Positions 1-45,105 of a DNA stretch of 64,000 bases are shown in pieces. The notes beneath the pieces are model-generated. The model worked only from the letters and a program-made list of their open reading frames with translations, did no database searches and was not told the DNA's origin. Source of the stretch: Escherichia coli (GTDB taxonomy: Bacteria > Pseudomonadota > Gammaproteobacteria > Enterobacterales > Enterobacteriaceae). The translations under genes were made by a program, and so were the position numbers. The first letter of the stretch is position 1; every line of letters begins with the position of its first letter. The stretch is taken from NCBI GenBank assembly GCA_023061495.1, contig GCA_023061495.1_3643.1; one strand, written 5' to 3'.

Positions 1-3000
1 GGCTTTTGGAAGATCCGGACCTTTATTATCACTGCGGCCTGTTTAAAGCGTTGAATAAGAACCGTTTTATGCTGTTCCTTCCTCTGAATGACCGCACACA
101 CTACTCCGAGGAGGATATAGAGAAGGCTAAGAACTTTATTCTGGCAAAGAAAACTCTTTATAAGGATTTTGAAGTTCGCATAGCAGATTTTTCAGAGTTG
201 GAAGGTTGGCTTACAGGAAATTCCGATTGGTCACCAACAGCTTTGAACTGCCATAACTGCTACAGTTATGACTTTATGCTGATGGAAAGATTATCCGGTA
301 TTCATTTTGATATGTTCCGTGATCCTAAATGCATGGGGACTATCAACAACCACCAGGTTAACCTGTTTGATACGTTGGCGATGAGCCGAATCTTGTGGCC
401 TGATCGCCCTTTACCAAAAGGTTGTCCGGACGCTGTATTCAACCCGGTTACTAAGAAAATGCAGCCTGTTGGTCCTCACGGCCTTATGGCATGGGGCTAC
501 GCCCTTGGTAACCAGAAAGTTCAAATTGATGACTGGCGCGATCTTCCGTTGTGGAAGTATGTGGATCGTGTATTCGAGGACGTTATCATCCAGGAGCTGC
601 TCTGGAAAGAGTTGGTAGCGGAATCAAAAGGTGTATTCTACGGCAAATCTGACATGCAGAACTTTATGTACGATCCTGCCAAAGAGAAGCCGAAAGGCTT
701 CAAGAAGATCACCTGGAAGAATGCATTGCGCCGGGGTATGCTGCAACACTTCCTGATGGAGCTGCAGGCCCGTCAGGGTGTGTATTTTGACATAGATGGG
801 GCTATTGCTTTACGTGACCGTTGCGATGCGTGGATGAAAGAAATCGCTGATCGTGTTGAACCACAACTACCTTTAAAAGAGCTGTCAATGTCTCAGCGGC
901 CCAAGTTCCCTGAAAAGCCGTTTAACCAAGATGGGACAATCTCCAATAATGGTTGGAAATGGTTAAAAGATAAGCTTGGCTATCCTGTGGACATGAGCGC
1001 TTTAGAGTTCAAAGCCCCACCTAAGCGAGCATTTACCTCCACAGGGGATGTCAGTAAGATGGGGATAAAATGGTGTGAAGAGATGGGCTGTAAAGACCCT
1101 GATAAGATGGCTGATTTCTTGAGGGGCTATATTAAGGGCACTTCCACACCACAACCTTTACCTAAAGAGCTAATGGATCAGGCAATAAGTGATCTACAGC
1201 AGAAGCGAATGCCTGACTGCAAGATACCTATGAAAATCAGCAATCAGGACGACATTAAGCGATACCTGATTAGTGCTGGTTGGCTTCCGACAATGTGGAG
1301 AACTAAGGATGTAACTAAAGACAGCAAGAAGAAAGCTCTACCTGATGCAGATGTTGATGCACGAGTATATGCATATATGGACGAGCTTTTAGAGTCAGAG
1401 TATTGTGACCTGATTATCAACTTCTGGAACAAAACTGATGCTAAGTTCCAGACAACCGTGCACAAGTTCCGAAGCTTTCCTAACTCCGAAAGGATTAAAA
1501 AGGAAGTATTCGGGAAAATACGTAGAAAAGCTAGGGCACTTATTACTTCTCCGCAACTGAAAGATACGTTTGGACACCTATGCCCTAATCTTGAAAAATT
1601 GAACGGAGAGATGGCTAAAGATATCGTCTTGTGGTTATCATTGCGAAACCGCAGATCGGTACTTGATCCAATCAAGGAGGATAAGGTTGATACTGGTCTT
1701 CTTAATCACCCACGTTTGAAGATTGACCATAAGCTTCCTGCTAAAAGTTCTGGGTTAACAAACACTTCCCGACAGAAACACAGTATTTGTGCGAACATGC
1801 CTAAACCATCTCCTAAAGTGGTTATGGGTAAAGAGATGCGTAGTCTGTGGGGTGTTCCTCCGGGATACTTTGAGATCGGTATTGACGGGTCCAACTTAGA
1901 GCAGCTTATCGGGGCTTGGGGTGCCTTTGAGTTCGACAACGGCCTGTATTATGATGTTGTAAGTAACGGCGATGCACACTGCTATTCAGGAGATACACAA
2001 ATTCTCACAGAGAAAGGGTGGATAAGGTTTGAAGATCTTGATCAGGAAACGCAAGTGTTCCAGTACGATCACAACACCTCGTCAATGAGCCTTGTTACTC
2101 CACTAAACTACGTTAAGCGGAGTTATTGCGGGGATATGTATCATTTCCACAACAGCAGCGTGGATTTTATGGTTACAGATCAACACAGAATGCTGACTGT
2201 TGACCACAGAAGCAATAAATTGTTTGAGGATTTGGCAAAAGATCTGAAAGCAGGTAAAGGGTCTAATTCAGGAAGAAGGTTTATCCATGCGGCAGAGTTT
2301 TATGGGAATACAACCTTATCCCCTGCTCAGATTAATTTACTTATTGCTATCCACGATGACGGAAACTTGCATACAAATAAAGATGGAAGCAGCGTATGCA
2401 GGGTCCAGGTTGGAAAGGGGAGAAAAGTTGCAATGCTTTTGGATACCTTTTCTGCTCTAAATCTTGATTATACAGAGCAGTGCGGGAAAACAACCAAAGG
2501 AGGTTTGCTGGCAAGAAGATTCCAATTCCACGTGCCGTCTTGGGTGTTTAAGTTTTTGGACAGCAACAAAGATTTCACCTATAGTTTGATGGATCTTGAT
2601 AAAGAATCTAAAAACCTGTTTATAGCTTCTTTATCTAACTGGGACGGGTGGGTATCTTCCGAAGGTGGAAAAGTTATTTACTACTCCCAGGCTGAGTGCA
2701 GGAAGAAATCTGTAGAAGTGGTGTCTGCCTTGGCTACTCAGTGTGGTTTACGGAACAACACGGTGACAATTCACAGAGAGGGTCGTGCCGTGCAGCACAG
2801 AATTACAATTGGTAGCAAACAGAAAGCAGGTTTACTAACACTGGATAAAGATCTTGTCGAGGTGAGTAATTCTTTGGTTTATTGCGTCACCGTTCCCTCC
2901 GGAGCGATTATTGTAAGGAGAGGTGGCAAGGTTGCAGTGTGCGGCAATTGCAATAACGCCAAAGCCTACTCTGCTGTAGCAGGTAAGGAAATTTCCCGTA

Positions 3001-3359
3001 ACGATGGTAAACCTGTCACGTATGGGGTTATGTACGGGGCACAAAAAGATAAAGTTGCAGATATGCTAGATATCTCTCCAGAACTGGGGCAGAGAGTAAT
3101 TGACGCTCTCTGGGATGCCAACCCAGGCCTTAAGGGGCGCAAAGAGGATCTGGAGAAATTCTGGGAAGCAACAGGTAAGAAATTTATCTATTCTTTTGAC
3201 GGCCATGCCATCTGGACCCGCTCTAAACACTCTTTGCTTAATGCATATCAGCAAAATGGCGGTGCCTCGTTGTGCGACTTGGTCGGAATCCTCATGCACC
3301 ACCAGATGGTGAAGCGTGGATGGTATGATGAGGGTGTTCGTCGTATTATTTATTACCAT
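1..3359 (+). CDS. DNA polymerase family A (3'-5' exonuclease + polymerase domains), exon 1; 5' end outside window; contains an intein
   Basis: Frame open from window edge; Exo II-like LNCHNCYSYDFMLM, motif A GIDGSNLEQL, motif B RNDGKPVTYGVMYGAQ; track ORF stops at ...IIYYHK* with HDE of motif C missing, so coding is taken to end at the H codon (3357-3359). Confidence 0.85.
1980..2948 (+). mobile_element. Intein (about 323 aa) with LAGLIDADG-type homing endonuclease domain, inserted after GDAH between pol motifs A and B
   Basis: Starts CYSGDTQILTEKG (block A), TDQH/TVDH (block B), LIAIHDDGN and LSNWDGW (LAGLIDADG-like), ends ...VAVCGN followed by Cys; removal restores GDAH-CNNAKAY junction. 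Confidence 0.75.
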
Positions 3360-4202
3360 AAATAACATTGTGGCTTCGTGCAGTGATGCACGTCGAAAAC
3401 CTCTTTAATTGACGGGAAGGCTAAGTTGACTTTTACACCTAAACATGGTAAAAGCTCAATATGCTAATCCGCAGCGAAGACTAAAGGGGTGTAGTTAAAA
3501 TGGCTAGATCAGCTGATTATCACGGGTATACCGTGTTTGATGATGGAACAATACCTTTATCGAAACGTGATCATACAACAATGTTTTGTTTTGATAATGG
3601 TCGAGGTTACCTTTGCGTGACCATGTTCATAGAGGGGAAGCAGTGCACAAAAGGTGTCCACCACTTAGTTGCTGAGTGCTTTGTATCAAACCCTGATCCT
3701 GAAAGGCTCACATGGGTGAACCATAAGGATGGAAATAAGTACAACAATGCATACTGGAACCTGGAGTGGACCACCCCCTGGTGGAAATATCAAACACGCC
3801 TACGATAATGACCTCAGAGTAAGGCCAGTCGGCGAGTATAATGCCAATGCTGTGCTGACCGAGGATGAGGTAATGGAGATTTGTGAACTGTTACAGAGCG
3901 GTCTACGACAATGTGAGATTAGGGATCTTGGGTATCCTTATGAAACGGTCAGAGCCATAAAGCAAAGAAGACAGTGGAAACATATCTCTAAAAACTACAC
4001 CTGGTAGTAACGTTCAGAGACTATCGAAAGCATAGCTCCAACATAGTTTGGTGTGAAGAAGCGAGTAGAGTAGGCCAGCAAGTGCGGTCGAAATGAGAGG
4101 TGCCTTGGTAACAAGGCAGTGAGATAGTCCGATCCATGCGGGAAACTGTATGGCTATGCACGTAATGGTGCGGGGTAGCTTAACGACCTACCTGAACTAT
4201 TG
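3360..4202 (+). mobile_element. Group I self-splicing intron in DNA polymerase gene, carrying an HNH endonuclease ORF
   Basis: 5' exon ends in U (3359), intron ends in G (4202); P-like AATTGACGGGAAGG (~3408), Q-like AATCCGCAGC (~3468), R-like GTTCAGAGACTA (~4010), S-like GAGATAGTCC (~4124); candidate P1 CCAU/GUGG; splicing joins ...IIYYH to DEYQLQV. Confidence 0.75.
3500..4007 (+). CDS. Intron-encoded HNH homing endonuclease, apparent frameshift near 3775-3790 (track ORFs 3500-3808 and 3729-4007)
   Basis: HNH core HHLVAECF...VNHKDGNKYNNAYWNLEWTT in one frame; continuation GNIKHAYDND...LTEDEVMEI...RQWKHI in the next frame; shift at the CCCCC run. Confidence 0.65.
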
Positions 4203-4556
4203 GATGAGTACCAACTTCAAGTACCTGACACACCGAAGTATAAGACTGTGTACACCTTCGACACAATAGAAGAACTGGAAGCATTTAAGGCAGAGCAGGA
4301 GGCCAAACTTCATGTGTTCGACGGTCATAAGTACAAAAAGGCACGCAAGGATGAGGACGGAAACGAAGTGGTTGACAAGGACGGAAATACGGTATACGAT
4401 CCTATCTTGAACGATGACGGAAAGCTTGAACTTATCTGGAGCCCTGTGGGCGAAATGGTGGTGCATTGCTTCTGGCAAGCTTCTAAAATGATGGGCGTTC
4501 CGTTCCAGATCACAGGTGAATACTTGTGTGGTCGTAACTGGGGTGATTGTCACTAA
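4203..4556 (+). CDS. DNA polymerase family A, exon 2 (C-terminal part incl. motif C)
   Basis: Begins GAT GAG (DE of HDE) right after intron omega-G; ends ...GRNWGDCH resembling the family A C-terminus (Klenow ...GENWDQAH). Confidence 0.75.
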   Translation, partial: DEYQLQVPDTPKYKTVYTFDTIEELEAFKAEQEAKLHVFDGHKYKKARKDEDGNEVVDKDGNTVYDPILNDDGKLELIWSPVGEMVVHCFWQASKMMGVPFQITGEYLCGRNWGDCH

Positions 4557-4605
4557 TGTAAACTATCAACACACGGAAGTGTTGTTAGACAGAGAGGAGA
4601 CTTTT

Positions 4606-4890
4606 ATGGTAGTAGAACCGACAAAAACATTTACCTCCATGACTATTCCTGTTATTATGCAGGTAGAGTGCGTTCAGGTTTCCCAAGTGTGGCCCGGTAC
4701 TAAAATTCCAACAGGGCCTGATTTCTTCCAGGTTGGAAAGGTGTACAATGTATGGAAGGCACCGGATTGTTACCCTTTCATTAAAGATGACCGTGGAATG
4801 TTATGGTATCTAGGAAATGATTTGACACTGCATCTTGGAAATGCTATTATTGCAGTGTTCCGGCTCAACAAGAAGGAGACAGATCAATGA
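4606..4890 (+). CDS. Hypothetical small protein (paralog family with KDD-G...W motif)
   Basis: ATG at 4606 preceded by GAGAGGAGA; motif FIKDDRGMLWYL shared with neighbours. Confidence 0.5.
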   Translation: MVVEPTKTFTSMTIPVIMQVECVQVSQVWPGTKIPTGPDFFQVGKVYNVWKAPDCYPFIKDDRGMLWYLGNDLTLHLGNAIIAVFRLNKKETDQ

Positions 4891-42186: not shown

Positions 42187-43446
42187 TCAGCAACCACAAC
42201 TTCCGTAGTGCTTAACTCGCTCGATAACTTCCGCTTGCTTACCTTTATTGTAAGGACGGGAGTTAGGGCTGGAAAGGTATCCAGACACACGTCGAATTAC
42301 ACTGATCGTTCCCTCTTCATGGTTTCCACACCCTGGGCATACAAAGCCTTTAGCTGTTGCACTGAACTCACCAGAGAAACCGCACTTGAGACATTTATCT
42401 ACAGGTTGGTTAATACCAAAATACATAATGTGTTTATATCCGAAATCAACAAGAGCTTCCAAAGCATCTAAGTTGTTTTTCAGATTTGGTGTCTCTATGT
42501 ACCCAATGTTGCCACCAGAGGAGATCATAGCAAAACCTTCCTCATACTTCCACTTATCAAAAGGCGAGCTATTGATCCATACTGGCTGATGGAAACTGTT
42601 GGTGAGGTATTCATGCTCGTGCTTCAACACTTCTGGGTATTCACGATCCAGACAGGTTGCAGCTTTATAGCATAAACTCTCAGAAGGTGTGCCGTACAAG
42701 CTAAATGCTAGTCCACTTTCCTTCTTGTATCGCTCACAAGCATCTTTCATGTGCTGAAGGATTCCAAGAGCTAAAGCCTTGTCACCCTCTCTGCCCAAAA
42801 TCTGACAGGTTTCATACACACCAATATACCCAATACTGATGGAAGCGTACCCGTCATAGAAGAGTTTATCGATACTCTCTTCAGGATCCAGGCGAGCAAG
42901 AGCTCCTTCACACCACATGATAGGGTTCTGCCCTGCCTTTGTTCCTTTTAGACGGTTAACCCTTACAAGGTGAGCCTCGTATGCAAGATCCAAGTATTCG
43001 TCAAGAACTGCAAAGAAATCAATACCTTCCGTCTTAGCTTTTGCCGCAATCATTGGTAGGTTAAGGCTAACAACACCCAAGTTGAATCTGCCAAGGTATT
43101 TTTCATCACCCTCCGGTGTAACATATTTGCCAAGGAACGACCTACATCCCATGCTTGTTACTTTGCCGTCTGTTGAACCTGTCACTTTACGATTTAGCGG
43201 AACAGAAACAAAGTCAGGATAAATCCGCTCTGCAGAGCATTCTAGGGCTAATCGTTTCAAATCGTAGTTAGGATCCCCAGGGTTCATGTTGACACCCTCC
43301 TCTAAGAAGAACAGCACTTTAGGGAACACAGGTGTGATCCGTTCTTCACCAAGACCCATTTTGTGAACTTTCAAGTAGTTTTTGGTAATCATTCTACCAA
43401 AGACCGAAGTATCCAGCCCTAAACTTAATGTGATGAATGGAGTCTG
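42187..43446 (-). CDS. nrdD: Anaerobic ribonucleotide reductase NrdD, exon 2 (C-terminal part)
   Basis: YLGRFNLGVVSLNLP core block and C-terminal RVSGYLSS glycine-radical-like region; predicted to begin QTPFITL after the intron. Confidence 0.65.
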   Translation of the reverse strand, partial: QTPFITLSLGLDTSVFGRMITKNYLKVHKMGLGEERITPVFPKVLFFLEEGVNMNPGDPNYDLKRLALECSAERIYPDFVSVPLNRKVTGSTDGKVTSMGCRSFLGKYVTPEGDEKYLGRFNLGVVSLNLPMIAAKAKTEGIDFFAVLDEYLDLAYEAHLVRVNRLKGTKAGQNPIMWCEGALARLDPEESIDKLFYDGYASISIGYIGVYETCQILGREGDKALALGILQHMKDACERYKKESGLAFSLYGTPSESLCYKAATCLDREYPEVLKHEHEYLTNSFHQPVWINSSPFDKWKYEEGFAMISSGGNIGYIETPNLKNNLDALEALVDFGYKHIMYFGINQPVDKCLKCGFSGEFSATAKGFVCPGCGNHEEGTISVIRRVSGYLSSPNSRPYNKGKQAEVIERVKHYGSCGC

Positions 43447-44244
43447 CTGTCTCCACCCCTGTGTTTCCACAGGGCCAGACTATCTCTTACTCTACTTCAA
43501 TAAGATAATAACCCTTTATTGTGAGATGCTTACCTTCGGCATTTCCTTCGATAGCCCTGTGGACGTTTCCTACGTTCAAATTTAAGGCTTTTGCACAGGC
43601 ATAGAGTGAAGGATATTCACCCACCAAGGTTTTCCCTTGGTATGCCTGCACTTTCCTGTAGCACTTGCCTGGACAAAGCCCTGTTCGGAAAGCATGTCTC
43701 TTATTATCTTCCGGCAAAACCCACTCTAGGTTAGACGGATGATCATTCAATGTATTGCCATCTTTATGATTCACTTCCCAGTTTTCAGGGTCTTCTGGGA
43801 CATCTGGCAAACAATACAAGGCAACAACCCTTGAAGTTTGGATTCGAATCTTTTTACCTTTGTGGTTGAAAGAATACATATAGCGGCGTTTAACATGCTT
43901 GTTACCTTTTCCATAACCTCCCCACAATATGGGGTGCAGCATTCCACGTTTTCCGTATACGTTTCCCACCTCATCAATCACATAGTTTGATTCTTCACCA
44001 TTAAGAATGATCTTTTTCATAGAGTCTCTCCCTTTCGAAGTTAGTATTTCAACTAACCCCTACACTACTCGGTTCAGAAATGTTTGTCAAGCATCTCTGC
44101 CTTTCGTTAGTCGTTACAACCGTTCCAACTCCTGTAAGAACTAGTCACGGGATTGGCATAGCTTTCGCCTTAGCGTTCCCCGTTAGCCGGATTCACCGAC
44201 CCCTCTTATGAGGTTAGGAGAGTTTTACAACGGCCAGTTTGTTA
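43447..44244 (-). mobile_element. Group I intron in nrdD carrying an HNH endonuclease ORF
   Basis: Minus strand: exon ends AACGGU, intron has GCCGUU for P1; P-like AACGGGGAAC, Q-like CAATCCCGTG, R-like GACTAG, S-like AAGAGATAGTCT; intron ends ...GACAG; boundaries inferred. Confidence 0.6.
43487..44020 (-). CDS. HNH homing endonuclease (intron-encoded)
   Basis: VNHKDGNTLNDHPSNLEWV core; sits inside the nrdD intron. Confidence 0.75.
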   Translation of the reverse strand: MKKIILNGEESNYVIDEVGNVYGKRGMLHPILWGGYGKGNKHVKRRYMYSFNHKGKKIRIQTSRVVALYCLPDVPEDPENWEVNHKDGNTLNDHPSNLEWVLPEDNKRHAFRTGLCPGKCYRKVQAYQGKTLVGEYPSLYACAKALNLNVGNVHRAIEGNAEGKHLTIKGYYLIEVE

Positions 44245-45105
44245 ACCGTTGACAGAAGTTAACGTATTGATTTGGTAGAGCAAAGTTTGCATACTATCAA
44301 ACACGTCTTTATCTGTCATTTGCATTGCAACAGTCTCAGCATCTGGCAACCAATGTTCCTGACAAAATTTAAGGTTCTTCTCATAGGTTGCTTCAGCATA
44401 CTGTGCCAGATAATGATCAATATGGCTCATGGTCTGACCACCATATTGAGCACTAGCTACTGCACTAGAGATTTGGCTAAGGATTGTTGTTGCAACCCCT
44501 ATTGACTTCGGCTTACTGACATGGGCGTTACCAATGTTGAATCCGTTTTCCAGCATATCAGGATAATTTACCAAACAACAGTTTGTTAACGGACTGATCA
44601 GGTAGTCAAGATCATGCACATGGATGAAGCCTTTGTTGTGCTCTTCGGAGACACGGTCTGGCAGGATCTGTGTTGATGCAAGATGTTTGCTAAGGATGCC
44701 TGCAAGCAGGTCACGATGAGTATGAACATGATTAGTAGGCTTATTTGCGTTTTCTTTTGTAAATTCATCACAAGTGCGATCCAAGAAGCCGCTAATATCT
44801 GCAAGCAGTTTTCCACCTGCCTCTCTGTTATTATCTCTTGTCTGTCTATACTGGATGTATTCTCTGGCTGCACATTTTAAACCCATATCCATAAGAGCAT
44901 CTTCAACAAGGATATGGATATTTTTTACAGAGATCGTGCACTGGTCGGTTGGCAGATTGTTGGCAACAACTTCATTAACCGCGCAGGCAATCCGGTAAGC
45001 TTCTTCTTCAGTATGTCCAGACTCAAGTAAGGCGGACTCTGCCGCCTTGATCACCTTAATTCCGTTATAAAACTCTTCTCTACCGTCCCGTTTTACAACT
45101 TTCAC
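44245..45105 (-). CDS. nrdD: Anaerobic ribonucleotide reductase NrdD, exon 1 (N-terminal part with ATP cone)
   Basis: VVKRDGREEFYNGIKVIKA (ATP-cone-like) and FIHVHDLDY; stop codon lies immediately after predicted 5' splice site. Confidence 0.7.

Follow-up and report, generated by a model that had tools for sequence, protein, structure and literature searches.

Organization of the polymerase locus

The stretch of DNA analyzed here comprises 64,000 nucleotides (nt) of contig GCA_023061495.1_3643.1 from the Escherichia coli assembly GCA_023061495.1 and is referred to as the window. It opens within a DNA polymerase gene that carries two insertions, assigned below to an intein with a LAGLIDADG domain and a group I intron with an HNH gene. 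Positions 1-4600 matched 125 phage records, nearly all of which are rV5-like coliphages (Vequintavirus), and the closest record for the polymerase region was Escherichia phage VB-EcoM-WM (WM) with 97.6% identity. Judged by these matches, the window is DNA of an rV5-like coliphage, and the gene hosting both insertions is, by alignment, that of a T7-type family A DNA polymerase. In annotated relatives the coding sequence (CDS) of the polymerase is directly preceded by a primase/helicase gene, and its first base lies 40 nt ahead of the one aligned with window position 7; the window therefore opens approximately 13 codons inside the gene, whose true start is placed about 39 nt outside it. The open reading frame (ORF) of exon 1 runs from 6 to 3365 and ends ...IIYYHK*, with its stop codon at 3363-3365, just where the original prediction, made from the letters of the window, had seen the frame close ahead of motif C. 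The length of 1119 amino acids (aa) that was then given for the unspliced product is an artefact of the window edge, and the full exon-1 product counts 1132 aa. The gene is organized as follows:

1..1979, plus strand: polymerase exon 1, N-extein; 5' end cut by the window edge; exonuclease region and motif A (GIDGSNLE)
1980..2948, plus strand: class-1 intein (assigned) with LAGLIDADG domain, Cys1 (CYSGDTQ) to Asn323 (VAVCGN)
2949..3359, plus strand: polymerase exon 1, C-extein; +1 Cys at 2949-2951, motif B, end ...IIYYH; U3359 is the last exon base
3360..4202, plus strand: group I intron (assigned), IA2-like with P7.1 and P7.2, 843 nt, delimited and assigned by empty alleles, Rfam and covariation
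4203..4556, plus strand: polymerase exon 2, 117 aa and stop; starts DEYQLQV, which completes HDE of motif C, and ends GRNWGDCH*, as had been proposed

Alignment to the DNA polymerase of phage T7 (gp5) showed which parts of the enzyme lie on either side of the insertions. The N-extein aligned to gp5 residues 468-506, including the equivalent of D475, and the C-extein to residues 507-653, and exon 2, which in intron-less alleles is part of one continuous ORF, aligned with D654 and E655. The polymerase spliced in silico matched gp5 468-658 with an E-value of 1.5e-15 and was gap-free at both junctions. After removal of the inserts, equivalents of D475 and of H653-D654-E655 are all present; before removal, the protein scored 17.6 bits against Pfam DNA_pol_A, under the curated cut-off. 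The intein is placed after the equivalent of T7 His506, a residue that we take to be located between motif A and motif B and to contact the incoming deoxynucleoside triphosphate (dNTP), and thus between motifs A (D475) and B, and the intron lies in motif C, between the codons that correspond to H653 and D654. With the T7 alignment unbroken across both junctions, the proposed placement of the intein between motifs A and B and of the intron in motif C held.

Boundaries and ribozyme core of the intron

The boundaries of the intron were read from alleles in which the site is empty. Phage NHEP1 carries the intein and lacks the intron, and its annotated single CDS reads ...IIYYHDEYQLQV. In the alignment to NHEP1, window positions 7..3359 join directly to 4203..4700; the intron is therefore exactly 3360..4202 (843 nt), and the predicted exon ends U3359 and G4203, the joining of which would restore YHDE, were borne out. 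CarlMeissner provides a second intron-less allele at this site. In unspliced RNA, translation is stopped by the in-frame UAA at 3363-3365.

Both ends of the intron bear the expected marks. The 5' splice site lies after U3359, which forms a wobble pair with G3370 in P1; Rfam places the same pair, with position 10 of its model Intron_gpI (RF00028) coinciding with the splice-site U. G4202, the last intron base, corresponds to omega G. The P, Q, R and S elements that had been suspected were located at 3407-3418, 3466-3475, 4012-4023 and 4121-4130, respectively. The structure was drawn as follows, all on the plus strand:

3356..3476: 5' half of the ribozyme core, P1 to the 5' strand of P6
3356-61/3368-73: P1
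3377-81/3388-92: P2
3400-05 (5' strand) and 4095-4100 (3' strand): P3
3410-16/3468-73: P4
3419-3465: P5, P5a and P5b
3474-76 (5' strand) and 4011-13 (3' strand): P6
4011..4202: 3' half of the ribozyme core, 3' strand of P6 to the terminal G at 4202
4019-23/4125-29: P7
4024-26/4062-64: P7.1
4035-41/4048-54: P7.1a
4073-76/4086-89: P7.2
4101-07/4112-18: P8
4135-41/4146-52: P9
4158-61/4168-71: P9.1
4174-78/4188-92: P9.2

Covariation was analyzed in a set of introns from 11 phages of four genera (Vequintavirus, Avunavirus, Seunavirus and unclassified Vequintavirinae), all of them inserted at YYH/DE. ORF loops were taken out, the cores were aligned with MAFFT, and the structure from P1 to P9.2 was drawn by hand. 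Across the 11 introns, standard pairs were found in 95.5% of the cells and double-sided changes in 28 of the 82 pairs. When the 3' partners were slid by 1-3 columns, 2-6 pairs showed double changes, and none of 500 shuffles matched the observed value. Compensatory changes were present in P2, P3, P7, P7.2, P8, P9, P9.1 and P9.2, and P7.1 was also listed with such changes; the pairs with double changes numbered 4/5 in P2, 2/6 in P3, 5/7 in P8, 4/7 in P9 and 2/5 in P9.2. The U.G pair of P1 was invariant across the set, and all 11 relatives likewise end in G. Most of the unpaired cells in helices 4 and 5 are accounted for by MAFFT, which set P4 and P5 of the two most divergent introns one column out of register; the alignment was left unedited.

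Several observations weigh against the assignment. At the gathering threshold, Rfam gave no match across the whole window, and with relaxed filters RF00028 reached 28.7 bits at 3350-3605, compared to a threshold of 50. P1 did not vary in the 11 introns, which makes covariation uninformative for this helix. The 11 introns represent only about six distinct, related lineages, so that the shuffle statistics are inflated. In addition, the slid controls were at a disadvantage, as the structure had been drawn on the sequence of the window. The low Rfam score of the window is explained by the failure of the model to bridge the 529-nt ORF insert in the P6 loop. On ORF-less orthologues the same model scored 73.7 bits (JEP1, 328 nt) and 64.7 bits (YP-6, 276 nt). 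The covariance-model search that had been suggested as a check thus stayed under the gathering score for the window itself and passed it for the orthologues.

In introns of subgroup IA2, the stretch from P7 to the 3' strand of P3 holds two extra helices, P7.1 and P7.2, with G-U-A as their linker (PMC3428280). In the window, GUA is found immediately 5' of P7.2, and the linker is exactly GUA in rV5 and YP-6. As judged by these helices and their linker, the intron is IA2-like in architecture. A candidate P10 could form between CAUU (3366-69) and GAUG (4203-06). The intron interrupts motif C between its His and its catalytic Asp, a position that recurs throughout Vequintavirinae; this site and the sequence of P1 are the same in Avunavirus, Seunavirus and Certrevirus. 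All features that define a group I intron in silico were found, and we assign the element to this class; on this basis it is expected to splice in the present phage.

The HNH gene of the intron is frameshifted in the window

The loop of P6 accommodates the reading frame of a homing endonuclease:

3487..4002, plus strand: extension of the P6 loop with the HNH gene
3500..4007, plus strand: HNH homing-endonuclease gene, disrupted; frame 1 at 3500-3808, then 74 codons in the next frame to the stop at 4005-4007

The original prediction had placed an HNH ORF in the intron. The region of the HNH motif is present as claimed, but the ORF is frameshifted. Frame 1 encodes 102 aa and contains VNHKDGNKYNN...NLEW, and the shift follows ...NLEWTTP. 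The window has a run of five C at 3774-3778, compared to four in WM, Mangalyan, EmilHeitz and Av-05, and the resulting +1 frameshift gives 102 instead of 168 aa, with loss of 74 residues at the C-terminus. An intact HNH endonuclease is thus not encoded by this intron in the window, whereas relatives carry intact copies of 168 aa. The HNH protein gave 18.6 bits against Pfam HNH_3, which is under the cut-off. In a tblastn search with it, 1611 phage records were found, many of which are annotated as HNH homing endonuclease, and about 31 records were at least 90% identical. A programmed frameshift was ruled out, as the gene is uninterrupted with four C in all four relatives compared.

The lesion reflects inactivation in the very recent past or else a mistake in the sequencing of the homopolymer. 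If the gene is frameshifted in the phage, the intron is therefore probably splicing-competent yet no longer self-mobile. That the frameshift is instead an error of sequencing, the gene being intact and the intron still mobile, we judge to be only slightly short of an even chance. The one additional C in a run of four is the sole lesion, and both halves of the gene are otherwise open and near-identical to intact relatives at the protein level, as would be expected of such an error. Against it stands that ORF-less, and hence immobile, versions of the intron are common in the genus, with rV5, YP-6, JEP1 and JLBYU08 as examples; within this intron lineage, 19-1-2 is also devoid of an ORF. Loss of the nuclease is therefore a normal stage in the life cycle of the element. 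The overall picture of the locus is unaffected by which of the two explanations applies.

A candidate stem P6a, formed by 3487-3494 (GGGUGUAG) and 3995-4002 (CUACACCU), would close the ORF loop. The same candidate stem would cover the Shine-Dalgarno sequence AAGGGG just 5' of the AUG at 3500. Counterpart stems with compensatory changes were seen by eye in Av-05, GEC_vB_MG and LTH01.

Boundaries, homologues and predicted fold of the intein

The intein was delimited in the same way as the intron. The window encodes ...VVSNGDAH-CYSGD...VAVCGN-CNNAKAY..., and the allele of EmilHeitz, which lacks the insert, encodes ...VVSNGDAH-QNNAEAY.... From this empty allele the intein is therefore exactly 1980..2948, corresponding to 323 codons (969 nt). 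The same junction was obtained from CarlMeissner, which is without both elements and has a CDS of 925 aa, and from rV5, which is intein-free and has a short intron. Hence, the predicted insert of 323 aa from Cys to Asn with LAGLIDADG-like blocks proved exact in comparison with three intein-free relatives. Within the insert the following regions were recognized:

1980..2186, plus strand: N-terminal splicing region, block A (Cys1) to block B (VTDQH, T66-x-x-H69, 2172-2186)
2337..2366, plus strand: first LAGLIDADG motif (LLIAIHDDGN); presumed catalytic Asp127; helix 115-127 of the model
2616..2651, plus strand: second LAGLIDADG motif (LFIASLSNWDGW; SLSNWDG); presumed catalytic Asp222; helix 208-222 of the model
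2877..2948, plus strand: C-terminal splicing region, block F (VYCVTVPSG) and block G ending in Gly322-Asn323

Searches with the intein by tblastn revealed full-length homologues of 20-30% identity in 376 phage records. These are embedded in the alpha and beta subunits of ribonucleotide reductase, NAPRT, RtcB, PhoH, methylases, thymidylate synthase, primase-helicase, phosphoesterases and other proteins, and some were labelled inteins by their own depositors. An alignment with seven homologues comprised blocks A and B, the two LAGLIDADG motifs, a KxxK block and block F; its end reads ...Gly-Asn/(Cys/Ser/Thr) throughout the family. In the homologue alignments Cys1, H69, D127, W221 and G223 were invariant and D222 nearly so. 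The AceL NrdHF intein (PDB 6zgq) was matched with E-values of 7.6e-6 with the single sequence and 7e-12 with a profile, and one member of the intein family weakly matched Pfam LAGLIDADG_3. A word-index protein search with the intein alone gave no match, which is a limit of the word index, and a profile of the homologue alignment gave 23 matches, mostly inteins inside PhoH.

The structure of the intein was modelled with AlphaFold (AF2) from an alignment of 17 sequences, which yielded a mean predicted local distance difference test score (pLDDT) of 87.3 and a predicted template modelling score (pTM) of 0.87. The best PDB matches of the model in Foldseek were PI-SceI (2.6e-13), TliVMA, PI-PfuI and PI-TkoII, followed by I-DmoI and I-SceI (approximately 1e-5), and the AceL intein was also among the matches. 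The comparison with known inteins that had been called for as a check was thereby answered by full-length homologous inserts in unrelated phage proteins and by the matches of the model to PI-SceI, TliVMA and PI-PfuI.

At E<=1e-3, an exhaustive phmmer search with the intein and 40 flanking residues on each side gave 9001 representatives. The match spans both PolA flanks at 30-41% identity in no fewer than 12 diverse clusters of PolA, and these clusters share the junction ...GDxH/C(Y/F)S.DTE...SGN/(S/T/C).... Judged from these matches, GDxH/C recurs as an intein site among family A polymerases and is no one-off.

Not all of the evidence speaks for an active intein. The penultimate residue is Gly instead of the canonical His, also in all seven aligned homologues, and Pfam and NCBIfam searches with the whole exon-1 product and with the isolated intein gave only matches below the curated cut-offs (Hint_2, 15.6 bits; TIGR01445, 17.9 bits). 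Moreover, the intein is unannotated in all seven Vequintavirus records that carry it. These points would suit a degenerate intein or a domesticated domain of 323 residues that is retained in the mature polymerase. A His before the terminal Asn is common in inteins and not obligatory, and the Gly-Asn end is common to the homologues, including some annotated as inteins. Each of Cys1, T66xxH69, Asn323 and the +1 Cys is found here and conserved across the family, and a HINT fold with a LAGLIDADG domain was predicted with high confidence. The +1 Cys occurs solely in intein-bearing alleles, and the empty alleles carry Gln. This pattern fits the need of splicing for the residue and is expected only if the Cys is required. 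Furthermore, the insert directly follows the counterpart of T7 His506, a dNTP-binding residue of the fingers subdomain, and a permanent domain of 36 kDa at this place should be disruptive. We therefore give very little credence to a retained domain.

On sequence and model, the insert is classified as a class-1 intein with a two-motif LAGLIDADG pseudo-dimer, for which protein splicing is predicted. Both acidic motifs of the nuclease are intact, and it would be expected to be active.

Proposed expression and mobility of the two elements

Taken together, it is very probable that the polymerase gene was invaded by two independent homing elements, each of which is removed at a different level of expression. 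According to this model, the pre-mRNA would fold as an IA2-like group I ribozyme. An external guanosine would attack 3' of U3359 in the U.G pair of P1, and the 3'-OH of exon 1 would then attack 3' of G4202, probably aided by the short P10. Ligation of the exons would restore ...TAC CAT/GAT GAG... and thus Y-H-D-E; the predicted junction is ...UAUUACCAU/GAUGAGUAC..., and the predicted peptide is IIYYH-DEYQLQVPDTPK. Translation of unspliced RNA would end two codons into the intron (AAA UAA) and yield a product without the Asp and Glu of motif C. The ligated mRNA would encode a precursor of 1248 aa. Excision of the intein by the class-1 pathway would start with an N-S acyl shift at Cys1 and continue with trans-thioesterification to the +1 Cys, after which Asn323 would cyclise, and the exteins would be joined as ...GDAH-CNNAKAY... 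beside the His equivalent to T7 H506, resulting in a polymerase of 925 aa. The nuclease of each element, the LAGLIDADG domain and the product of the HNH gene, would drive homing into empty alleles during co-infection. Where both elements begin and end, their assignment by homology and fold, the covariation of the intron structure, the polymorphism of presence and absence and the frameshift of the HNH gene are shown by the present data; RNA and protein splicing in the present phage, nuclease activity and the P10 and P6a pairings are the parts of the model that we infer.

A decayed, non-splicing intron/HNH cassette, with polypeptides of 1132 aa and about 117 aa that assemble non-covalently, as the products of the split nrdA of Aeromonas phage Aeh1 reportedly do, is barely credible. 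It could draw on the stop codon that closes exon 1, the in-frame TTG at 4200, the two separate 'DNA polymerase' CDSs annotated by many depositors, the HNH gene that is already broken in the window and indicates some decay, and phage CB7, in which at least one HNH-associated insertion did not splice (PMC7344957). It is opposed by a ribozyme core under clear purifying selection, with compensatory changes across four genera; by ORF-less introns that retain the complete core and pass the Rfam threshold; by a U.G pair and a terminal G exactly at the boundaries set by the empty alleles; by the parting of His from Asp-Glu within the catalytic motif that such a split would entail; and by the orthologous intron of CB7, which splices (PMC7344957). 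Separate initiation of exon 2 at the TTG was rejected, since this codon is intronic and no Shine-Dalgarno sequence is visible in CGACCUACCUGAACUAUUG.

Distribution of the elements and sequence breaks at their flanks

All four states of occupancy by intein and intron were found in Vequintavirus, many members of which are without either element; the occupancy counts are those of the search match tables and are not exhaustive over the 125 records. The intein was found in 7 of about 125 related genomes, namely WM, Mangalyan, JEP1, 241Ecol014PP, YP-6, EPFV3-03/2025 and NHEP1. Among these carriers the intron is HNH-bearing, ORF-less or absent, and the two elements therefore assort independently. The double arrangement of the window is shared by WM and Mangalyan, in which CDSs for 'DNA polymerase' and 'HNH endonuclease' are annotated and no intein feature is given. 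The same arrangement is thus, by sequence comparison, already contained in public phage genomes, mostly unannotated. In the searchable literature no mention of the Vequintavirus polymerase intein was found; its sequences are already public.

The sequences flanking both insertions differ between occupied and empty alleles. The downstream flank of the intein (2949-2996) is shared by all six intein-bearing alleles compared. About 20 of its first 48 nt are different in the three empty alleles (EmilHeitz, CarlMeissner and rV5), and among them is the change from CAA (Gln) to TGC (Cys). The 90 nt upstream of the intein show 2-3 differences only. This asymmetry suggests that the intein brought along foreign extein sequence of a more distant PolA. 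The haplotype looks like a one-sided co-conversion tract or an altered target site. At the start of exon 2 (4203-4214), both intron-less alleles (NHEP1 and CarlMeissner) read GACGAATATCAG and 7/7 intron-bearing Vequintavirus alleles read GATGAGTACCAA. These differ by four synonymous changes in 12 nt, and the third base also touches the putative P10. The synonymous cluster could reflect selection for resistance to the nuclease.

The patterns at the two flanks would be accounted for by co-conversion from a diverged donor, by empty sites that resist the nuclease, or by a combination of the two. We regard it as possible rather than probable that the sequence breaks beside both insertion sites record an ongoing homing contest and not neutral drift. 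If both readings of the flanks are true, the polymerase gene of Vequintavirus would be a natural and culturable system for homing of inteins and introns and for interference in mixed infections. Such a system would offer four states of occupancy as well as nuclease-plus, nuclease-dead and ORF-less introns.

Further observations in the window

A second gene of the window, nrdD (42187-45105, minus strand), which encodes anaerobic ribonucleotide reductase, is apparently split by a group I intron at about 43471-44241. This insert contains an intact HNH gene of 177 aa (43487-44020) and is reminiscent of the nrdD (sunY) intron of phage T4. Rfam Intron_gpI scored 26.7 bits at 43457-43744, under the threshold. 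The halves of nrdD are separate ORFs, the N-terminal one at 44242-45105 and the C-terminal one, with the glycyl-radical motif RVSGY, at 42187-43470. About 796 nt are missing at nrdD from rV5, NHEP1 and many others, indicating a polymorphic insert. tRNA and tmRNA genes were not detected by ARAGORN across the 64 kb.

The best-matching genome shifts along the window, from WM at the polymerase (97.6%) to FV3 at nrdD (97.9%), where WM reaches 70% coverage and 94% identity. This shift points to mosaic relationships within Vequintavirus around the sites of homing elements. Over the polymerase and nrdD regions, 16-19 'Campylobacter phage' records (MG065635, MG065658 and others; host C. jejuni) are approximately 95% identical to these rV5-like phages of E. 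coli. The attribution of these records to C. jejuni as host looks doubtful.

Significance and comparison with known systems

We consider the finding correct, well delimited and modest in novelty, as each element is an ordinary representative of a well-known class of selfish DNA. Its main practical value lies in annotation. Most depositors either split the polymerase into two or three CDSs or name the fusion of 1132 aa merely 'DNA polymerase' or 'hypothetical protein'. Correct boundaries lead to the true enzyme of 925 aa, which is relevant to the polymerase phylogenies that are used in phage taxonomy. In addition, an insertion point right after the dNTP-contacting His, which recurs in at least 12 distant PolA lineages, is added to the documented intein points of family A polymerases. 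A genus with every combination of occupancy is a convenient system for the analysis of homing and decay; current understanding is not overturned by it.

The closest described counterparts of the intron by site and architecture are those of the T7-like phages PhiI and W31, which belong to subgroup IA2, carry an HNH gene in P6a and are inserted at Pol I site 881, the His of HDE (PMC3428280). As in the window, a family A polymerase of the T7 type is interrupted at the motif C His, P7.1 and P7.2 are IA2-like, the HNH ORF occupies the P6/P6a loop, and the ribosome-binding site is near or in a stem. The likeness is one of described site and architecture. PhiI and W31 are podoviruses, in contrast to the rV5-like myovirus of the window, in which the HNH gene is frameshifted.

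Orthologues of the intron are the second polymerase introns of the Certrevirus phages phiTE, a Pectobacterium phage, and CB7 (CB7_52). They are inserted at the identical site (...RRIIYYH/DEYQLEV), bear an HNH gene and belong to phages of the same subfamily as that of the window. For both polymerase introns of CB7, splicing was evidenced by reverse transcription PCR and Sanger sequencing (PMC7344957). CB7 carries the orthologue of the second polymerase intron of phiTE with 95.7% identity. The phiTE intron shares its first 20 bases and P1 with the window, its 3' end is nearly identical, and identity across the 3' half of the core amounts to about 73%. The introns of phiTE and CB7 differ from that of the window in a diverged 5' core and in another HNH gene (phiTE_007, 127 aa), and the polymerase of these phages contains no intein. 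phiTE (207-919 of the compared stretch) and CB7 also have an extra HNH-bearing intron in motif B (...GKGVTYG / (V)MYGAQ...), a site that is empty in the window. Vequintavirus phages of the BASEL collection such as EmilHeitz (Bas49; PMC8594841; GenBank MZ501062) have the same intron, site and HNH gene as the window, with a core identity of 97%, and their depositors annotated a two-piece CDS. They differ in the absence of the intein and in their intact HNH gene.

Like PI-SceI (VMA1), TliVMA and PI-PfuI, the intein combines a HINT fold interrupted by a two-motif LAGLIDADG domain, according to its model, with Cys1, TxxH, a terminal Asn and a +1 Cys, and it is inserted at a conserved functional site of an essential enzyme. 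It differs from them in its sequence (11-15% identity), its length (323 compared to about 450 aa), the absence of an extra DNA-recognition region, the penultimate Gly and its host protein, a phage polymerase.

The original prediction had considered two selfish elements in one essential gene worthy of note. Both elements are present, but the combination has precedents. An intron and an intein in one phage gene are documented for bnrdE of SPbeta (PMC8270828, citing Lazarevic 1998), and nrdA of CB7 contains a LAGLIDADG intein and an HNH intron (PMC7344957). In these cases, as in the window, an essential gene of nucleotide or DNA metabolism carries a LAGLIDADG intein together with a group I intron, and CB7 belongs to the same subfamily; the host genes differ, being those of ribonucleotide reductase and not of a polymerase. 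Far higher densities of such elements have been described in crAss-like phages (PMC7886860).

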